Shown here one piece after another: positions 1,880 through 39,081 of a stretch of 39,081 nt of DNA (position 1 is the stretch's first letter; each line of letters begins with the position of its first letter). Origin of the DNA: a virus. The notes beneath the pieces were generated by a model that saw only the letters and a program-made list of their open reading frames with translations, did no database searches and was not told the DNA's origin. The stretch covers positions 1 to 39,081 of the IMG/VR virus record IMGVR_UViG_3300023082_000006; one strand, written 5' to 3'. The position numbers and the translations under genes are program-made.

Positions 1880-3829
1880 ATGCCGCAAGCATATGATTTC
1901 CTCGGCGGCGTCCAATCCGGTCAGGACTGGGTCAAGGGCCTGTATCAGGATCGCGCTCAGGTCCAGGCCGGACGCGCACTGCAAGGCGGGAACTTCGGTG
2001 CTGCGTCCGGTGCGTTGCTGGGCGCGGGCGACCTGCAAGGGGGGCTGGCGCTTCGTCAGCGTGGTCAGCAGGAGCAAGTCGCTCAGCAGGCTCAAGTTAC
2101 GGCGGATCAGGCGCGTCTTGCTGATTTTACGCTGAAAGCCGCGCGGGCTCTTAAATCGGTTCCTCCGGAGCAGCGCGGACAAGCTTATTCCGATCTTGCG
2201 CCTACCCTGCAAATGCTAGGCCAATCTCCTCAGGAGATTGCTGCTTTCGGTCAGGCTATGCAGCAGAACCCTGCTGTCATCGATCAGGCTGAACAATGGG
2301 CGGGGCAAACCGTTGCTGCGTGGGAGTTCAAGCAAGGTCCGACCGGCGACATTATCGGCGTTCGCCAAGGCCAGAACGGCGCTCCTGAAACAACTGTGGC
2401 TTACGATGCGCCGGATCGCCCCATTTCTACGCCTTACGGTATCATCCTTCCTCCACAAGCCAACGCGCCTCAATCTGGCGGACAACCGCAAGCGCAAGCC
2501 ACCGGGACGGCGATTTCCGCCAATCCCTTGTGGCAGCGTCAGGTTCAGCAAGAAAGCGGCGGTCAGCAGTTCGGTCGTAACGGAGAGGTTCTGACCTCGC
2601 CTGCCGGTGCTTTCGGTGTCGCCCAACTCATGCCGGGCACTGCCGCAGACATGGCGCGACAGATGGGCGTTACGGTTGAGCAGCTTCGTTCTGACCCCGC
2701 ACTCAACGAGGCTGCGGGCCAGCGCTATCAAAACCAGCAGCTTGAGAAGTACGGCGGCAATCAGGCGCTTGCTCTGGCTGCGTATAACGCTGGTCCCGGT
2801 CGCGTTGATGAGTGGATTCAGCGATTTGGCGATCCCCGTACGGGAGAGATTTCCACTGAAGAGTTCGTCGCCAGCATTCCTTTTGCCGAGACTCGCCAGT
2901 ATGTGCAAAATATCACCAACGGTGATTACGGGCAGGGCGATAACGAGGGGGATGCTGGTCAACAGACGAGCGGACTTCAACAGCTTGGCGGCGGCTACAC
3001 GCTTCAGCAGATGCAGACGCCTGCTGATCAGAGGGCTGAACGTCAATACCAGCTTTCCGTCAATGCCGACCGACGCGCGGAAACTGCTGCTGAGCGAGCG
3101 GCACGCTCCGAGGAACGAACCAACTCTCGTCTGGATGAGACTGTGGCGCGGCAAGACCGGGTCGGTACAAGCCAGCTTCGCCGCGAGTTTAATGGCCGCA
3201 AGGAAGTCGCGGAGTTTCGTGAGGTCGATAACGCTTATCGGTCCATGCAGACGGCTGTTCGGAACCCTTCTCCTGCCGGGGACATCAATCTGATTTTCTC
3301 TTACATGAAGGTTTTGGACCCTACCTCTACGGTCCGTGAAGGTGAGTTCGCTACGGCGTCCAATGCAGGCTCAGCCTTTGAGGCTATAGGAAATCAATAC
3401 AATCGCGTACTTCAAGGCACGCGCCTAAACGCCCGTCAGCGTCAGGACTTCCTTAATCAGGCGGGAAGCCTTCGCGCCTCTCGTGAACAACGGTTTGGCC
3501 AGATTCGTTCTGAGTATGAGCAAGAAGCGCGCATTAATGGCTATGACCCTCAAGCAATCGTCGGGGGTGTAAATGACCAAGGCCAGCGTCAACGCCCACG
3601 CACCAACGCTCCTGGCCTTCCATTCAACATCACCGACAGCCAGCTTGCAATCAGGCGCAACCTTGTTGCTAGAGGAGCAACCCCTAGCGCCCGCCCCGGT
3701 GATCCGTTGAACCCGATTTACATCAATCCTCAGGATGAGGCTTCCAGCATCCGTAACCTGCGACCGGGACAATGGTTCGTGCCGCCCCGAGGCACGACAG
3801 CCCTTCAAGTCCCTCCGAGGCGTCGATAA
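1880..3829 (+). CDS. Internal virion / ejection protein with a lytic transglycosylase (SLT) domain
   Basis: SLT family-1 motifs are present: QQESGGQQF (catalytic E-S), GAFGVAQLMPGTA and AAYNAGPGRVDEW. The protein is 649 aa and sits in the ejection-protein block. Confidence 0.85.
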   Translation: MPQAYDFLGGVQSGQDWVKGLYQDRAQVQAGRALQGGNFGAASGALLGAGDLQGGLALRQRGQQEQVAQQAQVTADQARLADFTLKAARALKSVPPEQRGQAYSDLAPTLQMLGQSPQEIAAFGQAMQQNPAVIDQAEQWAGQTVAAWEFKQGPTGDIIGVRQGQNGAPETTVAYDAPDRPISTPYGIILPPQANAPQSGGQPQAQATGTAISANPLWQRQVQQESGGQQFGRNGEVLTSPAGAFGVAQLMPGTAADMARQMGVTVEQLRSDPALNEAAGQRYQNQQLEKYGGNQALALAAYNAGPGRVDEWIQRFGDPRTGEISTEEFVASIPFAETRQYVQNITNGDYGQGDNEGDAGQQTSGLQQLGGGYTLQQMQTPADQRAERQYQLSVNADRRAETAAERAARSEERTNSRLDETVARQDRVGTSQLRREFNGRKEVAEFREVDNAYRSMQTAVRNPSPAGDINLIFSYMKVLDPTSTVREGEFATASNAGSAFEAIGNQYNRVLQGTRLNARQRQDFLNQAGSLRASREQRFGQIRSEYEQEARINGYDPQAIVGGVNDQGQRQRPRTNAPGLPFNITDSQLAIRRNLVARGATPSARPGDPLNPIYINPQDEASSIRNLRPGQWFVPPRGTTALQVPPRRR

Positions 3830-5823
3830 TGGCCCGCGCGCAAGACCCAAACTCTTTTTACGCGGCGGCTACGGCTCACACTCAAACTGACCCTGCTGCG
3901 GCTGCGGCCCTGGCTCGTTATCGTGAAGCCTACCCTGATGATGTGAACGCTACGGTCTTGTCTCCGGGGCAGGAGGGATATGCGGGACCAGCGGAACTGG
4001 ACCCGCAGGCGGATGTGTATGTTAAGGCGAAACCGCTAACTGATTCGCGCCTGCGTGCGGAGGTTGAAGCCGAACGCCGCCTAGGCGCGAACGGAGATAC
4101 CGCAGCGCGCGAAAGCACGCTGATGAACGGCCTGCTGCTTGGCGGTGCGGATGAGGTTTACGGTCGTCTGGCGCAAGGTGGTCAGATGGCGACGAACCTT
4201 GGCCGCCGCCTTCAAGGCCTGCCAATCGAGATCAATTCGTCGGACCTCAACGACGCGACAGTGCAGGCCTATCGTCAGACCACCGGAGATTTCGCACAGG
4301 AGCATCCATGGCAGGCTGGTGGACTAACGCTGGCTGGTGGCGCACTTACGGGCGGGGCTACGTTGGGCGCAGGGGTTGCCGGAGCCGCTGCTACCGGTGC
4401 TGGATACGGCGCGCTTAGCGGCCTCAATTCAGGCACGGGCGGTTTTGCTGATCGCTTGCCTGGAGCAGCCTTAGGGGCGGCTATTGGTGGTGCGACGGGA
4501 GGTACTGTTCAGGGCGTCGCACAAGTGGCTGCTCCCTATGCTCAGCGGCTTGCCGGGATCGCGGGGGGTGCGACTCGCCCCCTGCGTAACAGCGGACGTG
4601 CAGCCGACGTTCAAACTCTCGTGGATAGCGGTGTCTCGCTGACGCCCGGTCAGCGAATCGGCGGACTGGTTCAGAACGTCGAGAACCTTGCACAACGCGC
4701 ACCTATCCTTGGGCCTGCAATCCGTGGCGCTCGTCAACGTGGCTCTGAAACACTGAACCGCGCGGTTGGTTTGCGCGCCATGGATAACGTGGATCAGGGC
4801 ATTCCCGCAAATATCCCGGCTGGTTCGGAGATGGTCTCTTATGTCAGCGACAAGCTAGGAGACGAGTTCACGCGTGGATATGCAATGGTCCCGACGTTCG
4901 TTCCCGATGATCAACTGATGAGTGGGCTGCGGGCTGTGAGCGAGGCCAAGGCAGACCTTCCGCCAGAGTTCGGCAGGCAGTTCGATAACATCATCAGTTC
5001 GCGCCTTCAGCGGCTCGGAGGACAGGATGTGTCGGGCGAGGCTGTGGGGTCTGTTCGCTCCGAGATCAACAAGTTGGCCGCTGGTTATCTGAAGTCACAG
5101 GACCCTGCTCAGCAAGGTCTGGGGCAGATGCTTGCGGGCGTCGTGGACGAACTAGATTCGGCCATTACACGCATCAATCCTCAGGCCGGTGAGGTCCTTG
5201 GCAATGCGCGTCAAGGCTGGACGGATTACATGCGGCTGGAGCGCGCCTCTACCGCCGCCAACGGCAACAGCTTCTCTCCGGGACAACTCTCGTCTGCCGT
5301 GCGCCAATCAGACGGTTCGGTTCGTCGCGGCGCAGTTGCTCGCGGCGAAGCCCGCATGCAAGACTTGTCGCGCGCGGCCTCCAACATCATGCCGGATACG
5401 TTTGGCAATCCTGGAACGGCTGATGCGATTGGCCTTGGCGCGTTGGGAACTGGCCTTGTTACGGAGCCTGTCACTACAGCGGCTATCTCTGCCGGATTGG
5501 GCGCGGCCTCTGTTCCGTACCTTATGATGGCGCGCAAGGTCGTGGAAAGGCTTCCCGCCAATGCGACACGCCGCGAACTGGCTACAGCGGTCAATGAGGT
5601 TGAGGGGGCTGCACAGGCGCTTGGCGTAGAGTCGGGCGATGCTCTGGAGCAAATCGTCAACACCGCTGAAGCGGCTCGTGCTGCGGGTCGTCCTGTGCCT
5701 CGTGTGGCGCGCGATCTCGTCAACCGCGCCCGCAACACACTTGGCGCTAACGATAACCTCGTGGGGCAGCTTGAGCGGCTTCTGTTGCCATCGCGTGTCT
5801 CAGCAGAAGAAGAACAGCAATGA
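3829..5823 (+). CDS. Large internal virion / ejection protein with a Gly/Ala-rich membrane-like segment
   Basis: I chose the ATG at 3829, which overlaps the upstream TAA, over the track start at 3772. It contains a long GGxxG-type hydrophobic stretch (GGLTLAGGALTGGATLGAGVAGAAATGAGYGALSG). Its position matches P22 gp16. Confidence 0.75.
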   Translation: MARAQDPNSFYAAATAHTQTDPAAAAALARYREAYPDDVNATVLSPGQEGYAGPAELDPQADVYVKAKPLTDSRLRAEVEAERRLGANGDTAARESTLMNGLLLGGADEVYGRLAQGGQMATNLGRRLQGLPIEINSSDLNDATVQAYRQTTGDFAQEHPWQAGGLTLAGGALTGGATLGAGVAGAAATGAGYGALSGLNSGTGGFADRLPGAALGAAIGGATGGTVQGVAQVAAPYAQRLAGIAGGATRPLRNSGRAADVQTLVDSGVSLTPGQRIGGLVQNVENLAQRAPILGPAIRGARQRGSETLNRAVGLRAMDNVDQGIPANIPAGSEMVSYVSDKLGDEFTRGYAMVPTFVPDDQLMSGLRAVSEAKADLPPEFGRQFDNIISSRLQRLGGQDVSGEAVGSVRSEINKLAAGYLKSQDPAQQGLGQMLAGVVDELDSAITRINPQAGEVLGNARQGWTDYMRLERASTAANGNSFSPGQLSSAVRQSDGSVRRGAVARGEARMQDLSRAASNIMPDTFGNPGTADAIGLGALGTGLVTEPVTTAAISAGLGAASVPYLMMARKVVERLPANATRRELATAVNEVEGAAQALGVESGDALEQIVNTAEAARAAGRPVPRVARDLVNRARNTLGANDNLVGQLERLLLPSRVSAEEEQQ

Positions 5824-8607: not shown

Positions 8608-8946
8608 ATGACAGGGTTCATGGCATGGTTCGCGGAAAACAGTTGGCTTTACGTTGGTTCGGTTTCTGGTTCTCTCATCGCGATGAGCGCGGCGAGAAAC
8701 CTTACGCTGGCTGGACGGCTGCAAACCCTGATCGTCGGGACGTTGTCTGGATGCCTGGCAGGCCCCGCTATCTGCGAACTGTGGTTCGCTCAATATGACC
8801 CGCAAAGCTCACGCATCCCCTCGTTCATCTGCGGCCTTGTCGGCCTCACAGCCTTGGGGCTCATCCCGATCATCATCAAGAAGTCGAAAGACCTCTTCGA
8901 AAAATATCAATTCAAAATCATCGCCACGGAGCCACGTGATGAGTAG
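8608..8946 (+). CDS. Putative holin (3 predicted TM helices, charged C-terminus)
   Basis: 112 aa. It has hydrophobic segments followed by a KKSKDLFEKYQ tail and lies two genes upstream of the endolysin. Confidence 0.6.
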   Translation: MTGFMAWFAENSWLYVGSVSGSLIAMSAARNLTLAGRLQTLIVGTLSGCLAGPAICELWFAQYDPQSSRIPSFICGLVGLTALGLIPIIIKKSKDLFEKYQFKIIATEPRDE

Positions 8947-9337
8947 CTATCAGACTGCTCAACGGTGGATGGACGCCATGGACGTCAAGGCTTATGCGGG
9001 AGCCGGTTTCTTCGTCCTGTGCATCGTCGCCAGTGCCGTGTTCGGTGTTCTGCCACACGGGAGCCTCCTGTACATCAACGCCCTTGTCAGCGGCGCTGCG
9101 TGGATGGTCTGTCTTGGCATCCTGATCTTCGGCGGTAGGCGCGTCGATCTCTATGACACGGTGACGGCGGCGCTGCTGGCAGGAGGCCTGACGACATCGA
9201 TTCCGTCGCTGTTCGCCAACGACTCCGTCGTGGTCTGGGGCTCTACGTTCAGCCGCTTGGGTGTGCTGATGTTCGCACTGCGGTGGGCCTGGAATATCTA
9301 CAGCCGGGTTCGCAACGAGCGGGACGCTGAGAAGTGA
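8939..9337 (+). CDS. Membrane protein (about 4 TM; holin/antiholin-like by position)
   Basis: I chose the ATG at 8939 (MSSYQTAQRW...), which overlaps the upstream TAG, over the track start at 8795, whose N-terminus is Ser/Arg-rich and overlaps the previous gene. Confidence 0.65.
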   Translation: MSSYQTAQRWMDAMDVKAYAGAGFFVLCIVASAVFGVLPHGSLLYINALVSGAAWMVCLGILIFGGRRVDLYDTVTAALLAGGLTTSIPSLFANDSVVVWGSTFSRLGVLMFALRWAWNIYSRVRNERDAEK

Positions 9338-21568: not shown

Positions 21569-21960
21569 CCCCCGCCGCCATCCTCACGAACCAGATTCGA
21601 CTAGCCGTGTCCGACATCGGGGCGCGGCTTTTCGTTGTGACGGTCGGGAAGTTCTGGTCGGGTCAGGTGGTCGGGAAAACACCGTCTGGAAATCTGATCC
21701 TTAAGAACGCCCGTATCGTCAACGTCGGTTTCGAGGGTCAGTCAGACCTCTGCGGGTTTACGCCTACGCTGATCACGCAGGATATGGTCGGACAGGTTAT
21801 TCCGGTGTTTTCCGTGGTCGAGGTAAAGGCAGGCAAGGATCGCATCCGACCGGCTCAGCAGAAATATATCGACGCCATTAAAAAAATAGGGGGGCGGGCT
21901 GGTGTGGCCCGCTCCCCTGAGGATGCGATTAGGATATTGAAGGATCAGGCGGGGGAGTAA
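21565..21960 (+). CDS. VRR-NUC domain nuclease
   Basis: GQSDLCGF...[29 protein letters not shown] fits the PD-(D/E)xK VRR-NUC signature (D...E.K...Q). Confidence 0.65.
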
Positions 21961-22421
21961 TGTCCCGCCATAGTCATGAAAGGTATGTCGTCGTCTTCTA
22001 GTTCATAAGGCGGCTTCGGCTTGGGCTCTTCGTCCTTCACGTAACCACCGCCGCCTCCTGTGTTCTCAGACTTTCCACCCAACATCGTCAGTACGCCGTT
22101 AAACCGACCCACCTTGACCTCGGTGGAATACTTTTCCACGCCGTCTTTGTCGGTCCACTTCCGCGTCTCCAACGCTCCCTCGATATAGACCGTCGATCCC
22201 TTCTTCAAGTATTGCTCCACGACCTTGACGATATTGTCGTTAAAGATCGACACGCGGTGCCATTCGGTCTTCTCCTTGCGCTCACCGGAAGACTTATCCT
22301 TCCAGCTTTCCGACGTGGCTACGGACAGATTCGCCACCCGATCTCCGTTCGGCATTGAGCGGATTTCCGGGTCGCGTCCCAGGTTACCTACGAGGATGAC
22401 TTTATTCACTGATCCAGCCAC
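21945..22421 (-). CDS. ssb: Single-stranded DNA-binding protein with a 10-aa extension beyond the canonical DDDIPF tip
   Basis: [21 protein letters not shown]...WHRV... OB-fold signature, a Gly-rich linker, then EDDDIPF followed by [10 protein letters not shown] before the stop. Confidence 0.9.
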
Positions 22422-24419: not shown

Positions 24420-24605
24420 TCATTCCTCCGATGCAATTTCTGAAATTCGGTTTGCTGTTTGGTGGATTGCATTCAAATGTACAGCCCACCCGTACGAACT
24501 TTTGTCCGGGCCTTCAGCGATCATCGCCTCAAGTCTCTCGACATACCTCTGAATTATCCAAACCCTCTCGTGGTCGTTTATCCGCACCGCTTGACCTCCT
24601 GTCAT
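24420..24605 (-). CDS. Hypothetical protein; first gene of the recombination operon
   Basis: 61-aa ORF. Its stop abuts the exonuclease ATG. No clear RBS. Confidence 0.5.
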   Translation of the reverse strand: MTGGQAVRINDHERVWIIQRYVERLEAMIAEGPDKSSYGWAVHLNAIHQTANRISEIASEE

Positions 24606-24620
24606 TTAACGCGGTAATGC
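24591..24620 (+). promoter_or_regulatory. Candidate promoter for the HTH/primase operon
   Basis: TTGACC-N18-TAATGC, lying about 30 nt upstream of the GAGAGGG-N6-GTG start at 24659. Confidence 0.35.
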
Positions 24621-24630
24621 GTATGCAAGA

Positions 24631-24658
24631 AACATACACGAAAGCGAGAGGGCTTCAA
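24631..24658 (-). promoter_or_regulatory. Candidate promoter for the recombination operon
   Basis: On the - strand, TTGAAG-N16-TATGTT. It interdigitates with the + strand promoter candidate. Confidence 0.3.
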
Positions 24659-24859
24659 GTGACATTCAACGAATGGATCAAAACCAAGGGCGTCGAGAAA
24701 ATGGCCGCCACGCTTGGGATTTCGCAGAACACTATATATAGCTGGGTCCATCGCGGATCGGTACCACGCAATGTGTGGCCTGCCATTGTTCTTGCTTATG
24801 CAGAGTTAGGCATACGAGACCTGGTCGCTATGGAAGATGCGTCCAAGGTCGAAAAATGA
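24659..24859 (+). CDS. Cro/YdaS-like HTH DNA-binding protein
   Basis: MAATLGISQNTIYSWVHRGSVPRNVWPAI is a classic HTH. GTG at 24659 has the RBS GAGAGGG; an alternative ATG lies at 24617. The track start at 24320 overlaps the antisense exonuclease gene. Confidence 0.7.
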   Translation: MTFNEWIKTKGVEKMAATLGISQNTIYSWVHRGSVPRNVWPAIVLAYAELGIRDLVAMEDASKVEK

Positions 24860-26916
24860 CCGGCGGCCTGATCGAGGAATCTATCCTCACAGAGATCAAA
24901 CAGAAAATCAGGCTGTCCGAATTTATCGGGCGCACTGTTAAGCTCCAGCGGAGCGGGAAAGAATACGTCGGCCTTTCTCCTTTCACAAAGGAAAAAACGC
25001 CGTCGTTCACCGTCAGCGACGAAAAGGGCTTTTATCACTGCTTCAGCAGCGGAAAGCATGGTGACGCTATCGACTTCCTCACAGAAACCGAAAACCTCAC
25101 GTTCACAGAGGCGGTTGACAGGCTGGCATCAGAGGCGGGCGTTTCCCTTGCGCCCAAGCCAAAGGTCAAGCCGACCGTTGTGTGTCACTACGAATATCAG
25201 GACCGTGACGGGGAGCCTTACCTCCGTGTCACTCGCTATTCCGACAAGAGTTTCAAACAGTATCATTGGAACGGCCTGGACAGCTTTGAGCCGGGTAAGC
25301 CTTCCGGTTCGGTTGTTCCGTACCGCCTGCCTGAAATCCTGGCCAATGCGGACCAGACTATCCATCTGGTTGAGGGGGAAAAATCAGCCGACTACCTCCG
25401 TTCTAAGGGTCTGCTGGCAACGACCGCTCCAGGCGGCGGAACAAACTTTCCAGTCTCAGGTGATTTTGGCGTCTGGTTTGACGGACAGAAAGTTCGTGCG
25501 TACCCAGACAATGACCCGACAGGCCATAAATGGGCCGAACGCGTTGCCAGGACGATTCCTCACGCAGAAGTAATCTGGCTCCCGGATCAACCCGAAAAAG
25601 CCGGTGCCGACGACTGGCTAGCGCGTGAAGGCAGGACGATTGACGACCTGATCAGCGCCGCGTCGCATAACTCCGACGAAACCGGAGTTATGGAGCCCGT
25701 CTCTACCGCCGTTCACGCCACGCCTTTTCAGTGGGTCGATCCACTTAACATCGCCCCCCGCGCGTGGTTGTACGGTGACCACCTAATCCGCCGTTTCGTG
25801 TCAGTCACCGTTTCGCCTGGCGGCATCGGTAAGTCATCTCTGGTGATGATGGAGGCGCTGTGCATGGCGTCTGGTCAATCCCTCCTCAAGGATGACAAAG
25901 TCCGCGTCCCTGAGCCTCTCCGTGTTTGGTACTGGAACGGAGAGGACCCACAGGACGAAACCCAACGTCGCGTCATCGCAGCCGCCATGCACCACGGCTT
26001 GACGCCTGATCAAGTTGGCGGACGGCTATTCACTGACACCGGGCGCGAACAAACCATCACCCTCGGTCAGATCGTGCGTGGCGAAATCACCTTGGATGAA
26101 ACCCTATTCGATGAGCTGGAAGCGGAAATTATCGCCCGCAGGATCGACGTTTTCATTCTCGATCCATTCGTGTCTGCGCACCGGATGGGCGAAAATGATA
26201 ACAACGCCATTGACGCGGTGATCAAGCGCCTCGGGAAGCTGGCTGAGCGAGCCAACTGCGCCGTGGAGATCGTCCACCACGTCAGAAAACCGTCTGGGGG
26301 AAACAAGGACCAGACAGACGTTAACGACGCCCGTGGTGCATCGGCTCTTATCGGGGGGGTTAGATCGGCCCGCGTGCTTAATGTAATGCCAGAGGATATC
26401 GCCAAGGAAATCGACGGCATGGCCCTTGAGGACCGCTTCTCATACTTCTCGGTCACCAGCGGCAAGGCAAACATGACCCGCCGGTCAGGCGAAGGGAAAT
26501 GGCGTCAGCTTATGGACGTGGACCTCAAGAACGGCCCGCCAGGAGAGTCCGACCGTGTCGGTGTCGTCGCTCACTACAAACTTCCCGAGAAAGCCGCCGT
26601 CCTCGACGCACTGCCCCACAACGCGGTGATGATCGCTCAGCGGGCTGCATACGATAATCCTGCTCTCACCAGATACGACACGCAGTCTCCAGACTGGTTC
26701 GGGCATCTAGTTGGGCGTCTGATGGGAATAGATTCTGTGGATGAAAAGGGAAAAAATACGCTCAAGATTGCTATCAATACGTGGGTCAAGAGTGGCGCGC
26801 TCGTTATCGAGATCAGGCCCGATCACCAAAGAAAACAGCGGCAACATGTTGCCTGCCCTCTCTCTGAAACCCCGCTGTCATCTACTCCTGTAGATGACGA
26901 CGACACGCCGTTCTGA
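24856..26916 (+). CDS. Bifunctional primase-helicase (DnaG-type ZBD remnant + TOPRIM + RepA/AAA_25-type ATPase + C-terminal winged-helix-like domain)
   Basis: SPFTKEKTPSFTV...YHCFSSGKHGDAIDF; TOPRIM (LVEGEKSADYL...YPDNDPTGHKWA); Walker A SPGGIGKSS; Walker B DVFILDPF. I chose the ATG at 24856 (ATGA overlap). Confidence 0.85.
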   Translation: MTGGLIEESILTEIKQKIRLSEFIGRTVKLQRSGKEYVGLSPFTKEKTPSFTVSDEKGFYHCFSSGKHGDAIDFLTETENLTFTEAVDRLASEAGVSLAPKPKVKPTVVCHYEYQDRDGEPYLRVTRYSDKSFKQYHWNGLDSFEPGKPSGSVVPYRLPEILANADQTIHLVEGEKSADYLRSKGLLATTAPGGGTNFPVSGDFGVWFDGQKVRAYPDNDPTGHKWAERVARTIPHAEVIWLPDQPEKAGADDWLAREGRTIDDLISAASHNSDETGVMEPVSTAVHATPFQWVDPLNIAPRAWLYGDHLIRRFVSVTVSPGGIGKSSLVMMEALCMASGQSLLKDDKVRVPEPLRVWYWNGEDPQDETQRRVIAAAMHHGLTPDQVGGRLFTDTGREQTITLGQIVRGEITLDETLFDELEAEIIARRIDVFILDPFVSAHRMGENDNNAIDAVIKRLGKLAERANCAVEIVHHVRKPSGGNKDQTDVNDARGASALIGGVRSARVLNVMPEDIAKEIDGMALEDRFSYFSVTSGKANMTRRSGEGKWRQLMDVDLKNGPPGESDRVGVVAHYKLPEKAAVLDALPHNAVMIAQRAAYDNPALTRYDTQSPDWFGHLVGRLMGIDSVDEKGKNTLKIAINTWVKSGALVIEIRPDHQRKQRQHVACPLSETPLSSTPVDDDDTPF

Positions 26917-26918
26917 TG

Positions 26919-27103
26919 TGCGCCACCCTGTGTTTTAAGGTGGCGCAAAGGTGGCGCAAAACCACCTCAGTCAGGACCGGCGGTGGGGGCTTGACTTTTG
27001 GTTGCGCCACCTGTACCCCGCTAGGCGGAGCCGTCGTCGGGGTAAATCAGGGTGGCGCAAGCCTAAAGTCTGGCGCTCCACCTAAGCCGCCGAAGTGGCG
27101 CAG
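26919..27103. repeat. Iteron cluster: GGTGGCGCA(A) in direct and inverted copies (candidate replication origin or packaging-recognition site)
   Basis: Five full copies. Forward: 26939-26948, 26950-26959 (11-bp phasing), 27051-27060. Reverse: 26919-26927 (9 bp, lacking the final A), 27002-27011. Degenerate copies: 27071-27082 and 27094-27103. Nested inverted repeats are present (27002-27011 with 27051-27060, enclosing TACCCCG/CGGGGTA). Confidence 0.8.
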
Positions 27104-27141
27104 ACTTCTACATTATCGGACTTGCCAACCCCTCCCCTTCC

Positions 27142-27149
27142 GTGGATAA
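27142..27149 (-). promoter_or_regulatory. DnaA-box-like sequence
   Basis: The - strand reads TTATCCAC(g), an 8/9 match to the TTATCCACA consensus, about 40 bp from the last iteron. A single 8-mer can occur by chance. Confidence 0.3.
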
Positions 27150-27158
27150 TCCTGCGCT

Positions 27159-27302
27159 ATGACCCTCTTCGGAATCCTGCTCATCCTCTCGTTCGTCCTG
27201 TGGGCTCTGTCCGCGACGCCACGAACCGGCGTGCCTGAGTACGTGTCGCGCTGGTCGTTCGTGGTTACGGCGGTCGTGTTTGTGTTCGGGCTGTCGGTAT
27301 GA
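27159..27302 (+). CDS. Small membrane protein, 47 aa, 2 TM
   Basis: Not in the ORF track. MTLFGILLILSFVLWALSATPRTGVPEYVSRWSFVVTAVVFVFGLSV, with an ATGA overlap onto the next gene. The RBS is weak. Confidence 0.45.
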   Translation: MTLFGILLILSFVLWALSATPRTGVPEYVSRWSFVVTAVVFVFGLSV

Positions 27303-27514
27303 GCACGCTCAAGTCCAAAGCCGGTCATGTCCTCTCTACCTCCGACGACGCAGACGCGCGCTCCCTCGCTGCGCATGTGCTGGGCGAGGACGCGCCGAAG
27401 CCGGATCGCACTCGCGAGGAACTGCAAGCCTTGCTGAGCAAGATCGAGGGCCAGGAGGGGCAACACGAGCGCGCCGCTATGGTGCGGGAACAGATCGAGG
27501 TGTTGGGTGGGTGA
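27299..27514 (+). CDS. Hypothetical protein
   Basis: 71-aa acidic, helical ORF immediately upstream of terS. Confidence 0.6.
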   Translation: MSTLKSKAGHVLSTSDDADARSLAAHVLGEDAPKPDRTREELQALLSKIEGQEGQHERAAMVREQIEVLGG

Positions 27515-27929
27515 GACCGGACGGCCCAGAATGTATCAGGACGAACAGGTCTTTGCCGATAAGGTGGAGGCCTATTTTGATGATGTCGAAGCCAAAGGCA
27601 AACACGCTACGCTCGCCGGTCTGAGCTACTTCCTTGGGTTCGCAGACAAGCAAACCTTTGTCGATTACGAGCACCACGGCGGAACCTTTCCCCTTACGGT
27701 TAAAAGGGCTCGCCTACGAATGGAGGCAGATCGCCATGATCGCGTCATCTCCAAGGACAGTTTCACGCCCGGTCTGATCTTCGACCTGAAGAACAATCAC
27801 GGCTGGAAGGATAAGACGGAGCAGGAGCTTACGGGCGCTGACGGCGGCGCTATCAAGACAGAAACTCGACTTGACGTTACAGGACTGACGGAAGAGCAGT
27901 TGCGCGCCCTTGCCAGCATTTCAGTTTAG
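27507..27929 (+). CDS. terS: Terminase small subunit (P22 gp3-like packaging protein)
   Basis: GRPRMYQ...VEAYFDD...ATLAGLSYFLGF...TVKRARLRMEAD...GLIFDLKNNHGWKDK matches the gp3-type TerS pattern. The start is a GTG. Confidence 0.75.
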   Translation: MGETGRPRMYQDEQVFADKVEAYFDDVEAKGKHATLAGLSYFLGFADKQTFVDYEHHGGTFPLTVKRARLRMEADRHDRVISKDSFTPGLIFDLKNNHGWKDKTEQELTGADGGAIKTETRLDVTGLTEEQLRALASISV

Positions 27930-29517
27930 ACCTGAAGACGTAATAGCTGCACGATACGAGTTGGCACGCAGAAGCGTTGCCGACTTTTCGTGTACAGTAG
28001 ATATTCCGACTGTTCCGCTAAGCGACGACCCAGACGAGACTCAGTTCGATACGATGCGTCAGCCTAAGCTCGCTGCGCATCACCGGCTGATGTACTCGAA
28101 ACTACAGATTCTAGGGACACCGGAAGTCCCCAATCTGATGCTTTTGCTTCCGCCTGGATCAGCAAAGTCCACGGTTGCGGACGTTGTATTCGTTCCATGG
28201 TTCATGGGCGGACATCCGCGCAAGAACGTCGGCTTGGCCAGCTACGCCAGCGACATTGCGAAGAAGCAGGGCCGTCGTGCTAGACAGCTTATCAAGGGGC
28301 GAGAGTTCGCCAAGGTGTTTCCTAACGCCCTGCTGCGTGGCGATCAGTCTGCTGCGGACGAGTGGGCCTTGGAGAACGGCGCAGAGTTCATGGCGGGAGG
28401 AATCCTGTCGGGACTGACGGGGAACCGCTTCCATGTAGGGATATGGGACGACCTCGTTAAGGGACGCCAACAGGCCGAATCGCAGACAGTCAGGGACAGC
28501 ACGTGGGACGCCTACGTTGATGACTTCTGCTCTCGCTTAGTCCCCGGTGCGCCTCAGGTCGGTATAACCACGCGCTGGCATCAGGATGACGTTGCGGGTC
28601 GCATCCTGCCTGACACGTGGGACGGGGAAAGCGGACGTGTGTGGGGTAAGGATGGTCGTTGGTGGTATGTCATCTGTCTGCCAGCCATTGCAGACCGCGC
28701 CGACGATCCTTTGGGTCGAAAGATAGGCGAAACGCTGTGGCCCGAATGGTTTGATCTGGAGCACTGGAAGCCATTCCAGAACAATGTTCGTACATGGACC
28801 AGTCTGTATCAGCAGAAGCCTACAGCAGCGGAGGGCACGTTCTTCAAGCGTGAATGGTTCAAGCGCTACGGAACAGCAGAGCGTCCTTCTAACCTGCGCT
28901 ATTACATGACGAGCGATCATGCTCCGGGCGATGCAGAAACATCAGACTGGAACGTCTTCCGTATATGGGGGATCGATGAGCATCAGCGCATCTGGGAAGT
29001 TGATGGATTTCGTGATCAAGGACGGCTGGATGTTGCCGCTGGTCTGAAGCTGGACGAAGTTACAGGAGAGCAGACTGTCGCCGATCAAGGCGCTCTGGCT
29101 CTCATCAGGAAATGGAAGCCGTTTTGCTGGTTTCCGGAGAACGACAACAACTGGAAGTCGGCAAAGCCGTTTATCGTTGCTGCCATGCGTAAGCATAAGA
29201 TCAGATGCCGCATTGAAGAGATCAGCACGCAGGGGGGCGACAAGGCCACGAAGGCTCAGCCGTTCCAGGCTAAGGCTAGTATGGGTGAGGTCTTTATCCG
29301 TTCTGGACCTGTTGGCGACGCCATCGTTGAAGAGTACGTTGCGTTCCCTGGCGGTAAGCACGATGACGAAGTGGATTGCGGCGCGAATATGGGTCGCGCC
29401 CTTGACATGGCGCACCCGGCCATTGTCCCGACCGTCGATGTAGTAGATACTAGCAAACCGCGCGATCTGTATTCGCGGCCAAGGACGGACGATGATGGCG
29501 ATGGGCTGTACGGTTGA
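27910..29517 (+). CDS. terL: Terminase large subunit
   Basis: Walker A-like LLPPGSAKST, Walker B HVGIWDDLV, coupling motif TTRWHQDD, and C-terminal nuclease acidic residues (GGKHDDEVD). The start is uncertain (TTG at 27910, overlapping terS by 20 nt). Confidence 0.85.
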   Translation: MPAFQFRPEDVIAARYELARRSVADFSCTVDIPTVPLSDDPDETQFDTMRQPKLAAHHRLMYSKLQILGTPEVPNLMLLLPPGSAKSTVADVVFVPWFMGGHPRKNVGLASYASDIAKKQGRRARQLIKGREFAKVFPNALLRGDQSAADEWALENGAEFMAGGILSGLTGNRFHVGIWDDLVKGRQQAESQTVRDSTWDAYVDDFCSRLVPGAPQVGITTRWHQDDVAGRILPDTWDGESGRVWGKDGRWWYVICLPAIADRADDPLGRKIGETLWPEWFDLEHWKPFQNNVRTWTSLYQQKPTAAEGTFFKREWFKRYGTAERPSNLRYYMTSDHAPGDAETSDWNVFRIWGIDEHQRIWEVDGFRDQGRLDVAAGLKLDEVTGEQTVADQGALALIRKWKPFCWFPENDNNWKSAKPFIVAAMRKHKIRCRIEEISTQGGDKATKAQPFQAKASMGEVFIRSGPVGDAIVEEYVAFPGGKHDDEVDCGANMGRALDMAHPAIVPTVDVVDTSKPRDLYSRPRTDDDGDGLYG

Positions 29518-38835: not shown

Positions 38836-39081
38836 TGGTGTACAAGCTCCCAACACGTCAGGCGCGACTTCCCATCGTGGATCAGAAGGGCTTGCCTACG
38901 TCGGACTTTCTGCGGTTCCTCAATATCGATCTGATCGGATCGATTCAAACGGCGCTGAATCAGAACTCAGACGCGACAGCTGCAATCGCCCAGATCGTCT
39001 CTGATCTTCAGATCGTCGTGGCGCAGCTACAGGCCACATCCACAGCAGCGCAGGCCGCTCAACAGGCCGCAAACAACGCGC
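38835..39081 (+). CDS. N-terminal part of the needle-like gene that continues at base 1 (partial in the linear window)
   Basis: The ATG shares one base with the upstream TGA. MVYKLPTRQARLPIVDQKGLPTSDFLRFLNIDLIGSIQTALNQNSDATAAIAQIV... has no stop before the window end and is in phase with 1..570. Confidence 0.75.
   Translation, partial: MVYKLPTRQARLPIVDQKGLPTSDFLRFLNIDLIGSIQTALNQNSDATAAIAQIVSDLQIVVAQLQATSTAAQAAQQAANNA
38955..39081. repeat. Terminal direct repeat, copy 2 (identical to 1..127)
   Basis: See copy 1. Confidence 0.9.

Follow-up and report, generated by a model that had tools for sequence, protein, structure and literature searches.

We describe a cluster of short repeats (iterons) in a viral DNA of 39,081 nt, IMG/VR virus record IMGVR_UViG_3300023082_000006 at positions 1 to 39,081 (in the following called the window), together with the primase-helicase gene that ends directly in front of this cluster. 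We read positions 26917–27110, with a probability of roughly 0.8, as an iteron-type phage replication origin that would be recognized by the adjacent, self-loading primase-helicase. An initial annotation, made from the letters alone, had offered an origin and a packaging (pac) site as readings of the repeats, and the origin proved to be the better one: the array keeps its place throughout the helicase family, its architecture is conserved, it is independent of the genes that follow, and its repeat covaries with the C-terminal domain of the helicase. From these comparisons we infer binding of the repeats, melting, self-loading of the helicase and origin function in vivo.

The iteron array in the window and in its relatives

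The first 127 nt of the window are identical to nt 38955–39081, which shows a closed circle and a genome of 38,954 bp; because of these identical ends, iteron counts made on the window are counts for the whole genome. Such ends also fit a circularly permuted, headful-packaged phage. When we counted the 9-mer GGTGGCGCA on both strands, a check that the initial annotation had proposed, we found six exact copies, at 4336(+), 26919(−), 26939(+), 26950(+), 27003(−) and 27051(+), whereas dinucleotide-preserving shuffles contain 0.66 genome-wide on average and 3 at most. The motif is thus enriched, and five of its six copies fall within 141 nt (26919–27059). The sole exact copy beyond the array is isolated inside a long open reading frame (ORF, 3772–5823) at 4336–4344 and is probably a chance occurrence.

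The stop codon of the helicase gene, TGA, occupies 26914–26916, and iteron 1 begins 2 nt later. The arrangement that had been described was indeed seen: three of the five full copies are forward and two are reverse, the forward iterons 2 and 3 are phased by 11 nt, and two degenerate copies accompany them. The repeat finder also returned the two inverted pairs, 26919–26927 with 26939–26947 and 27002–27011 with 27051–27060, and the second pair encloses TACCCCG (27014–27020) and CGGGGTA (27038–27044), as can be read directly in the sequence. The elements of the array are the following:

26919–26927, minus strand: iteron 1, GGTGGCGCA (exact match, repeat finder)
26928–26938, no strand: A/T-rich spacer of 11 nt, CTGTGTTTTAA, separating the divergent iterons 1 and 2 (direct reading); candidate first-melting site
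26939–26947, plus strand: iteron 2 (exact match, repeat finder)
26950–26958, plus strand: iteron 3 (exact match, repeat finder)
26991–27019, plus strand: promoter-like element TTGACT-17-TACCCC, with iteron 4 in its spacer (alignment)
27003–27011, minus strand: iteron 4, left foot of the central palindrome (exact match, repeat finder)
27014–27044, no strand: central palindrome TACCCCG...CGGGGTA with the core CCGCTAGGCGG (direct reading and fold)
27051–27059, plus strand: iteron 5, right foot of the palindrome (exact match, repeat finder)
27075–27083, minus strand: degenerate reverse copy, GGTGGAGCG-like, two mismatches (repeat finder, alignment)
27094–27102, plus strand: iteron 6, AGTGGCGCA, one mismatch (mismatch scan)

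The 72-nt centre of the array (26995–27066) folds as single-stranded DNA with −22.1 kcal/mol (z = −5.4 against shuffles), and the G+C content of the array is 63% vs 59% for the genome. The degenerate elements have counterparts in relatives. A relative of 81% identity (L007) carries an exact copy where the window has iteron 6, and the CCACCT half of 27075–27083 is kept in relatives with other iteron types. In the same alignment GGCTTGACTTT is almost invariant, with its TTGAC part kept in the window's superclade, and the place of TTGACT-17-TACCCC is taken by TTGACA-17-TATGGC (L014), TTGACA-17-TATCGC (L097) or TTGACA-17-TATGTC (L038). The TACCCC of this internal element is at the same time the left arm of the palindrome. 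Possibly it is a promoter gated by the initiator, from which the palindrome would be transcribed.

Searching the whole genome with up to one mismatch gave no second iteron cluster, and the one additional copy, at 27094, belongs to the array; the counterpart of the P4 crr cluster for which the initial annotation had suggested to look is therefore missing from the closed genome at this threshold. The array was also described as lying in the only long non-coding stretch, which does not hold, since 24420–24659 is another one of about 240 nt. The 242-nt gap that holds the array is likewise free of genes in the gene calls on an independent contig with an identical helicase. We discarded a 77-codon ORF across the array (26916–27149) as a gene: in the 81%-identical L007 its frame is broken by indels of lengths not divisible by three, and the independent contig lacks a gene call for it. 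Rfam and tRNA scans of the whole window were empty, and megablast of 24775–29517 against 50,697 phage records gave no match.

We collected homologous loci in three scans, covering viral contigs, bacterial genomes and metagenome contigs, and kept 133 non-redundant loci in which the helicase end is followed by 170 nt or more of sequence; their helicases are 33–99% identical. The matches in bacterial genomes belong to prophages of Xanthobacter, Methylobacterium, Bradyrhizobium, Brevundimonas, Sphingomonas and other Alphaproteobacteria. A strongly repeated 9-mer stands within 215 nt downstream of the helicase stop codon in 97 of the 133 loci and in none of the 133 shuffled controls. The first copy follows the stop codon with a median distance of 4 nt (at most 25 nt in 89/97 arrays), the median number of copies is 7 (interquartile range 6–8), and neighbours of the same orientation are 8–11 nt apart. 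The usual array, like that of the window, opens with a single reverse copy, which an A/T-rich spacer (about 11 nt) separates from two or three forward copies; one or more reverse copies come next, and a TA-centred, G+C-rich palindrome then leads to the remaining forward copies. The reverse-forward-forward start of the window recurs in 53/97 arrays. Across 50 related arrays the median length of the first spacer is 11 nt and its GC fraction 0.39, compared with 0.62 for the whole arrays.

An inverted repeat with a score of 24 or more occurs within 200 nt after the stop in 86 of the 97 related arrays. The top-scoring one is often the G+C-rich palindrome between inverted iterons and elsewhere, as in the window, the inverted iteron pair itself. 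The central palindromes vary (L015, L021–L024, L033, L041, L053 and others), and most of them centre on a C-run, a TA-containing loop and a G-run; CCCCCTTTAGGGGG, CCCCCGTAGGGGG and CCCCTAGAGGGG are examples of such centres, with CCGCTAGGCGG in the window. From the comparison of these sequences a structural or priming signal may be suspected that is conserved whatever the iteron type.

The repeat itself is lineage-specific, as GGTGGCGCA, GGTGAGGAA, GGTGGGGAA, ACTGGCGCA, ACTGGTGCA, GGTGTGGCA, GGTGCGGCA, GGTGGAGCA and ACCGATGCA exemplify. When we aligned the window with relatives of 71–81% identity, we saw that the scaffold is kept and that all iteron copies are switched together, to GGTGGCGCA, GGTGGGGAA or GGTGAGGAA. 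This joint switching is the pattern expected for a site that co-evolves with its binding protein.

Two circular plasmids of cultured Alphaproteobacteria, pVL1_6 of Methylobacterium indicum (31.5 kb; NZ_AP024151.1, region 8863–9299, our loci L236/L238) and pR24_3 of Microvirga terrae (39.7 kb; NZ_CP102848.1, L237), encode a Toprim protein and a helicase with the C-terminal domain, with the array directly after. Plasmid pVL1_6 additionally has ParA, two toxin-antitoxin systems, a tape-measure gene and an integrase, and its gene table, which is incomplete, lists no other replication gene. Because of the tape-measure, integrase, ParA and toxin-antitoxin genes, pVL1_6 looks like a phage-plasmid that would use the Toprim/helicase/array module as its replicon.

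The primase-helicase and the residues that covary with its iterons

The gene in front of the array encodes a protein of 686 amino acids; the residue numbers used here count from the GTG at 24775, and 27 has to be subtracted to obtain those of the 686-aa product. Its features are:

24856–26916, plus strand: primase-helicase-initiator gene, 686 aa from ATG 24856, in an ORF open from GTG 24775 (Pfam, PDB sequence matches)
26587–26859, plus strand: predicted C-terminal winged-helix domain, residues ~605–695 (AlphaFold2 (AF2) model, Foldseek, covariation)
26860–26913, plus strand: acidic C-terminal tail, ending in PVDDDDTPF (translation)

Pfam assigns residues 34–125 to Zn_ribbon_DnaG (the CHC2 zinc ribbon) and residues 315–507 to AAA_25 (E = 8.6e-39). 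The sequence matches in the PDB are DnaG zinc domains and RSF1010 RepA (1g8y, E = 2.4e-8), and IncQ repA genes match the helicase at 31% identity. By these sequence matches the product is a RecA-fold helicase with Zn ribbon and Toprim, of the same kind as T7 gp4 or IncQ RepA. Pfam and PDB sequence searches gave no match of the helicase to the D5 or P4 families. An identical protein of 686 aa (P0001) is present in a public collection. Many close relatives (for example P0005–P0010) carry another N-terminal domain, without a match to PF01807. The zinc-ribbon part (24874–25149) shares 59–72% identity with a gene on the chromosome, presumably dnaG, of Caulobacter, Robiginitomaculum, Hellea, Litorimonas and relatives (L102–L154), and because of this identity a host in the Caulobacterales/Maricaulales and a host-derived zinc domain are suggested.

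The C-terminal domain of about 110 residues matches no Pfam family and, by sequence, no PDB chain, and an NCBIfam search recognizes only the DnaG part of the protein. It belongs to a family of 573 clusters at 50% identity and is placed C-terminally in nearly all listed proteins. AF2, supplied with 59 homologues, models the domain at the fold level as a winged helix (mean predicted local distance difference test score, pLDDT, 78.9), with three helices followed by a beta-hairpin. The best Foldseek neighbours in the PDB are winged-helix domains (DnaD-N, PadR, BLM RQC, Orc1/Cdc6), among them those of the replication initiators DnaD and Orc1/Cdc6, and those in a viral library are the C-termini of other phage primases and initiators. 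The winged-helix look that the initial annotation had attributed to the C-terminus is thus borne out by the model.

We then aligned the C-terminal domains of all array-bearing loci and set the iterons in a common register. The end of the iteron follows residue 686: an arginine in the wing (R686) goes with iterons ending in ..GCA in 68/69 cases, while glycine is found there in all four ..GAA cases and serine, glutamine or threonine in the ..GAG cases. Bases 5–6 follow the wing tip as a whole. Iterons with GC at these positions have R-K in the wing (K687) in 16/17 cases, drawn from the ACTG, AGTG and GGTG lineages; those with TG have K-R-M/N in 14/14, and GG likewise goes with Met or Asn. GT is accompanied by S/T-R-Q (4/4), CG by Glu or Asp at the position of 687, and GA by Arg, Lys or Gln. 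At the other end of the repeat, GG at bases 1–2 is found together with Q637 in 46/47 cases, and AC with Arg or Lys at this position in all 16 ACT-type and three of the four ACC-type arrays.

When we compared only pairs with ATPase domains less than 50% identical, so as to reduce the weight of common descent, K687 led the 88 variable columns (delta-P 0.48 vs a median of 0.007) and Q685 came second. In 81% of the pairs that have 70–95% ATPase identity and unlike iterons, the wing residue is a different one. Because the wing-coding DNA (26821–26835) holds no iteron, neither by eye nor as a copy with up to one mismatch, the covariation is not an artefact of overlap. We propose Q637 and the wing tip D683-H684-Q685-R686-K687 as specificity residues, and we infer that the iterons are read by the winged helix of the helicase itself, mainly via the wing tip and the loop before helix 2. 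The cluster can hence be addressed as an iteron array tied to the neighbouring primase-helicase, as had been supposed, by its conserved position at the stop codon and by this covariation.

The tail of the protein, PVDDDDTPF, resembles the C-terminal tip of SSB (..DDDIPF). An acidic-x-PF ending is found in 10 of the 133 relatives, every one from the superclade of the window. The phage has an ssb of its own at about 21945–22421 on the minus strand. Judged from this resemblance, the helicase tail may mimic the SSB tip and thereby recruit host replisome proteins.

Origin, packaging site, operator or partition site

Downstream of the array come two small ORFs, followed by P22-type terS, terL and portal genes. 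The neighbouring features that bear on the alternatives are:

27122–27150, plus strand: sigma-70-type promoter TTGCCA-17-GATAAT, 10/12 matches, ending 8 nt before ATG 27159
27159–27302, plus strand: first downstream gene, 47 aa, hydrophobic, outside the origin; mosaic junction of L001 at its start codon
27507–27929, plus strand: terS (GP3_package, Pfam), a neighbour only, unlinked to the array

The initial annotation had held it equally plausible that the array is a pac site, with recognition repeats for TerS in headful packaging. The P22-type terS (GP3_package), terL and portal genes that begin about 400 nt downstream would suit this idea, as would the circular assembly, which fits headful packaging, and some pac sites, such as that of SPP1, are rich in repeats and situated where terS begins. 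Yet the array travels, as far as the comparison of relatives tells, with the helicase gene and not with the packaging genes. Contig L001, whose helicase is 97–99% identical, differs from the window by one SNP (single-nucleotide polymorphism) through helicase gene, array and promoter and becomes unrelated from two bases after ATG 27159 (junction 27159–27162; 4190–4193 in L001), where an HNH endonuclease and a TerL of another family follow. In L007 TerS and TerL are both different from those of the window, the TerS being of a different family, and in L239, a contig with an identical helicase, a Terminase_3 large subunit lies downstream. The replication module is therefore followed by at least three different packaging modules, and near-identical arrays stand in front of non-homologous ones (L001, L239).

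The more distant relatives extend this picture. There the array, alike in architecture, precedes ssb or other genes, and a terminase lies 1.3–4.5 kb away or is not found within the flank; over all relatives, the distance from array to terminase ranges from 0.4 to more than 4 kb where one is found within the flank. An ssb is present within 1.5 kb downstream of the helicase in 10/133 relatives, and the downstream ORFs of 95 loci fall into 66 unrelated clusters. In contrast, the distance to the helicase stop is nearly constant and the array sequence covaries with the helicase C-terminal domain. Because non-homologous small terminases are not expected to recognize the same 9-mer, we reject the pac site, which we consider hardly credible.

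Another explanation accepts the binding of the repeats by the helicase domain and gives it a different purpose: the array would merely be an operator or terminator, and replication would start elsewhere, for example at 24420–24659. It could then autoregulate the early operon, insulate it from the late operon, or control the promoter at 27122–27150. Indeed, the array sits between the end of the early rightward operon and the TTGCCA-17-GATAAT promoter, it has a G+C-rich hairpin soon after the stop codon, the internal TTGACT-17-TACCCC carries an iteron in its spacer, and the other non-coding stretch, upstream of the helicase gene, has two DnaA-box-like 9-mers. As for a terminator, a T run is absent after the hairpin and no terminator is predicted there. 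The architecture is moreover kept whatever follows, including genes with ordinary ribosome-binding sites, and the Toprim/helicase/array module is the sole replication function listed on pVL1_6. A hexameric helicase with a sequence-specific DNA-binding domain and six to eight phased sites by its own gene is the signature of a self-loading initiator (PMC9371898). We thus regard a pure operator or terminator as unlikely, while the array may serve as operator and origin at once.

We also considered a partition (centromere-like) site or a target of another protein, for example of the small helix-turn-helix (HTH) protein encoded at 24660–24859. Centromere sites are arrays of short repeats as well, and the small HTH gene precedes the helicase gene. 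However, parA or parB do not lie beside the array in the window, HTH homologues were not found in distant loci that share the iteron (for example L015 and L053), and it is the helicase C-terminal residues that track the iteron. Such a role appears very improbable to us.

Several observations count against an origin at this place. A long A/T-rich unwinding element is absent from the array, and a clear array is missing in 36 of the 133 relatives, RHph_X2_26 included. This Rhizobium phage is the sole full-length cultured-phage relative (37% identity, annotated as a putative primase); its 106-nt gap downstream of the helicase contains one hairpin and zero iterons, so that it lends the origin no support. 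The position of the array between the early operon and a promoter makes a second role as operator or terminator conceivable. The Foldseek E-values against the PDB are weak for the winged helix, 0.05 or worse, and the covariation is corrected for shared ancestry only partly, via binning on ATPase identity. Finally, the GC-skew check that had been suggested was of limited use: the minimum of the detrended cumulative skew lies beside the array, at 27227, but it is confounded by a block of minus-strand genes (21.9–24.4 kb). Because the maximum, at 22025, marks the start of this block, the skew is not diagnostic.

Proposed mechanism, known initiators and surroundings of the array

If 26917–27110 is the origin, we can picture its use as follows. 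One protein would unite a DnaG-type primase (Zn ribbon and Toprim), a RepA/DnaB-like RecA-fold hexameric helicase, a winged helix and an acidic tail. The winged helix would bind the 9-bp GGTGGCGCA, with Q637 on bases 1–2 and the wing tip Q685-R686-K687 on bases 5–8. Six or seven iterons would be available, as two inverted pairs and extra forward copies on the same helical face; one inverted pair would bracket the A/T-rich 11-nt spacer and the other the G+C-rich palindrome. The iterons may gather the helicase subunits into one ring or two on the DNA, and melting may set in either in the spacer or through palindrome extrusion. After self-loading of the helicase, the first primers would come from the fused primase, with the palindrome serving as loading site, priming site or terminator.

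The closest functional parallel, by analogy, is the Rep helicase of the staphylococcal pathogenicity islands (SaPI). SaPI Rep is a self-loading initiator-helicase whose C-terminal winged helix recognizes iterons immediately downstream of rep, and the SaPI ori consists of 6–12 iterons of 5–6 nt in opposite orientations around a central A/T-rich region (PMC9371898). SaPI Reps are AAA+ helicases of the pre-sensor II insert clade that move 3'->5', and SaPI5 (PriRep5) fuses primase and helicase (PMC9371898). Our system shares the position of the iterons directly after the helicase ORF and their two orientations (three forward and two reverse exact copies here), the fusion of the primase to the helicase, as in SaPI5, and a predicted C-terminal winged helix, for which the recognition of the iterons is indicated here by residue-base covariation. 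It differs in the RecA-fold RepA/DnaB-like AAA_25 core in place of the AAA+ core with pre-sensor II insert, in iterons of 9 nt vs 5–6 nt, and perhaps in the centre of the origin, where we find a G+C-rich palindrome and a lone 11-nt A/T-rich spacer. SaPI Rep and the present helicase are without sequence similarity.

The initial annotation had called the protein P4-alpha-like. The alpha protein of phage P4 contains primase, SF3 (superfamily 3) helicase and a C-terminal winged-helix origin-binding domain (PDB 1KA8) in one polypeptide, binds octamer or nonamer iterons and needs a second cluster, crr, several kb from ori. This comparison is apt, as an analogy, for the C-terminal winged helix and for the combination of primase, helicase and winged helix in one polypeptide with short iterons, a likeness at the fold level only. 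It fails for the RecA-fold AAA_25 core, and the single iteron cluster has no crr counterpart. Because Pfam AAA_25 and the PDB sequence match point to RSF1010 RepA and not to SF3, we do not assign the protein to the P4-alpha type, and no P4 entry was among the sequence or fold matches of the helicase or of its C-terminal domain. On this evidence the helicase is analogous, and not homologous, to P4 alpha and SaPI Rep.

In the IncQ plasmid RSF1010 a separate RepC binds iterons of about 20 bp, a separate RepB' acts as primase, and oriV consists of iterons and a large inverted repeat. The present system has a homologous RepA-type hexameric helicase core and likewise iterons plus an inverted repeat. 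In contrast to RSF1010, the three activities apparently reside in one protein (two in the plasmid relatives), and the primase is of the DnaG type, unrelated to RepB'. With T7 gp4 and Twinkle the protein shares the order of Zn ribbon, Toprim and RecA-fold hexameric helicase. The T7 origins are promoter-driven, and to our knowledge T7 gp4 has no origin-binding domain, unlike the present protein with its extra C-terminal winged helix and adjoining iteron array.

For the archaeal plasmid pRN1, the multifunctional primase-helicase ORF904 and an essential origin within 166 bp directly downstream of its gene are described (PMC4234260). The position of the origin directly after the primase-helicase gene is the same as here; the archaeal system differs in its prim-pol and SF3 helicase, and an iteron array of the present kind is not described there. 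P4 alpha, SaPI Rep and pRN1 ORF904 all use SF3/AAA+ helicases, while the present one has the RecA fold. For the Bartonella run-off-replication origin, which we considered as a possible relative, a lambda-O-like origin upstream of a helicase has been proposed. Full-text literature searches for a RepA/DnaB-type helicase with iterons gave no description of the present family or of its origin.

The scheme of a self-loading initiator with an adjacent iteron origin is itself known; new would be the RecA-fold RepA/DnaB-type helicase within it. Taking all loci together, one may think of an undescribed class of initiators, widespread in phages, prophages and phage-like plasmids of Alphaproteobacteria, in which a RepA/DnaB-type helicase, often fused to a DnaG primase, has its own winged-helix reader of the origin. 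The specificity code would be readable from the protein, with the wing tip x-R-x and a Gln/Arg position set against bases 5–8 and 1–2 of the 9-bp iteron, and the palindrome with its iteron-gated internal promoter would be a loading or priming site. We put the chances of this wider proposal at about even. If true, one could derive the origin sequence from the protein and predict or re-engineer incompatibility groups. Phage origins are annotated for very few phages beyond the model systems, and the rule of looking directly past the stop codon of this helicase family apparently locates the origin in about 100 uncultured phages, prophages and plasmids. The initiator-helicase principle of SF3/AAA+ enzymes (P4, SaPI, pRN1) would extend to the RecA-fold RepA/DnaB type. 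The code predicts that K687M shifts the preference from GGTGGCGCA towards GGTG(T/G)GGCA and R686G towards ..GAA, and it may be useful for the incompatibility of co-infecting phages, for replicon design in Alphaproteobacteria and for the study of initiator-origin co-evolution.

A DnaA-box-like 8-mer beyond the iterons had been put forward as a further origin element, and this we had to give up. The site (27141–27149, minus strand, 8/9 match) is one of seven such in the genome, where 4.0 ± 1.9 are expected, which is no enrichment; it is absent in the 81%-identical L007 and overlaps the -10 hexamer of TTGCCA-17-GATAAT. Its sequence suits a promoter element better, with what would be a leaderless or near-leaderless mRNA. 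In L003 and L007 a TATAAT-N7-ATG stands where the window has the promoter of 27122–27150. No ribosome-binding site is visible between promoter and ATG 27159. Because the promoter ends 8 nt before this ATG, the data suggest that the first gene of the late or packaging operon is leaderless or near-leaderless.

The second non-coding stretch, 24420–24659, lies between the divergent operon of a YqaJ exonuclease and the HTH gene (24660–24859, 65/66 aa). It holds its two DnaA-box-like 9-mers 24 nt apart (24554, 24578) together with a TTGACC element, and by its sequence is probably an early divergent promoter/operator region.

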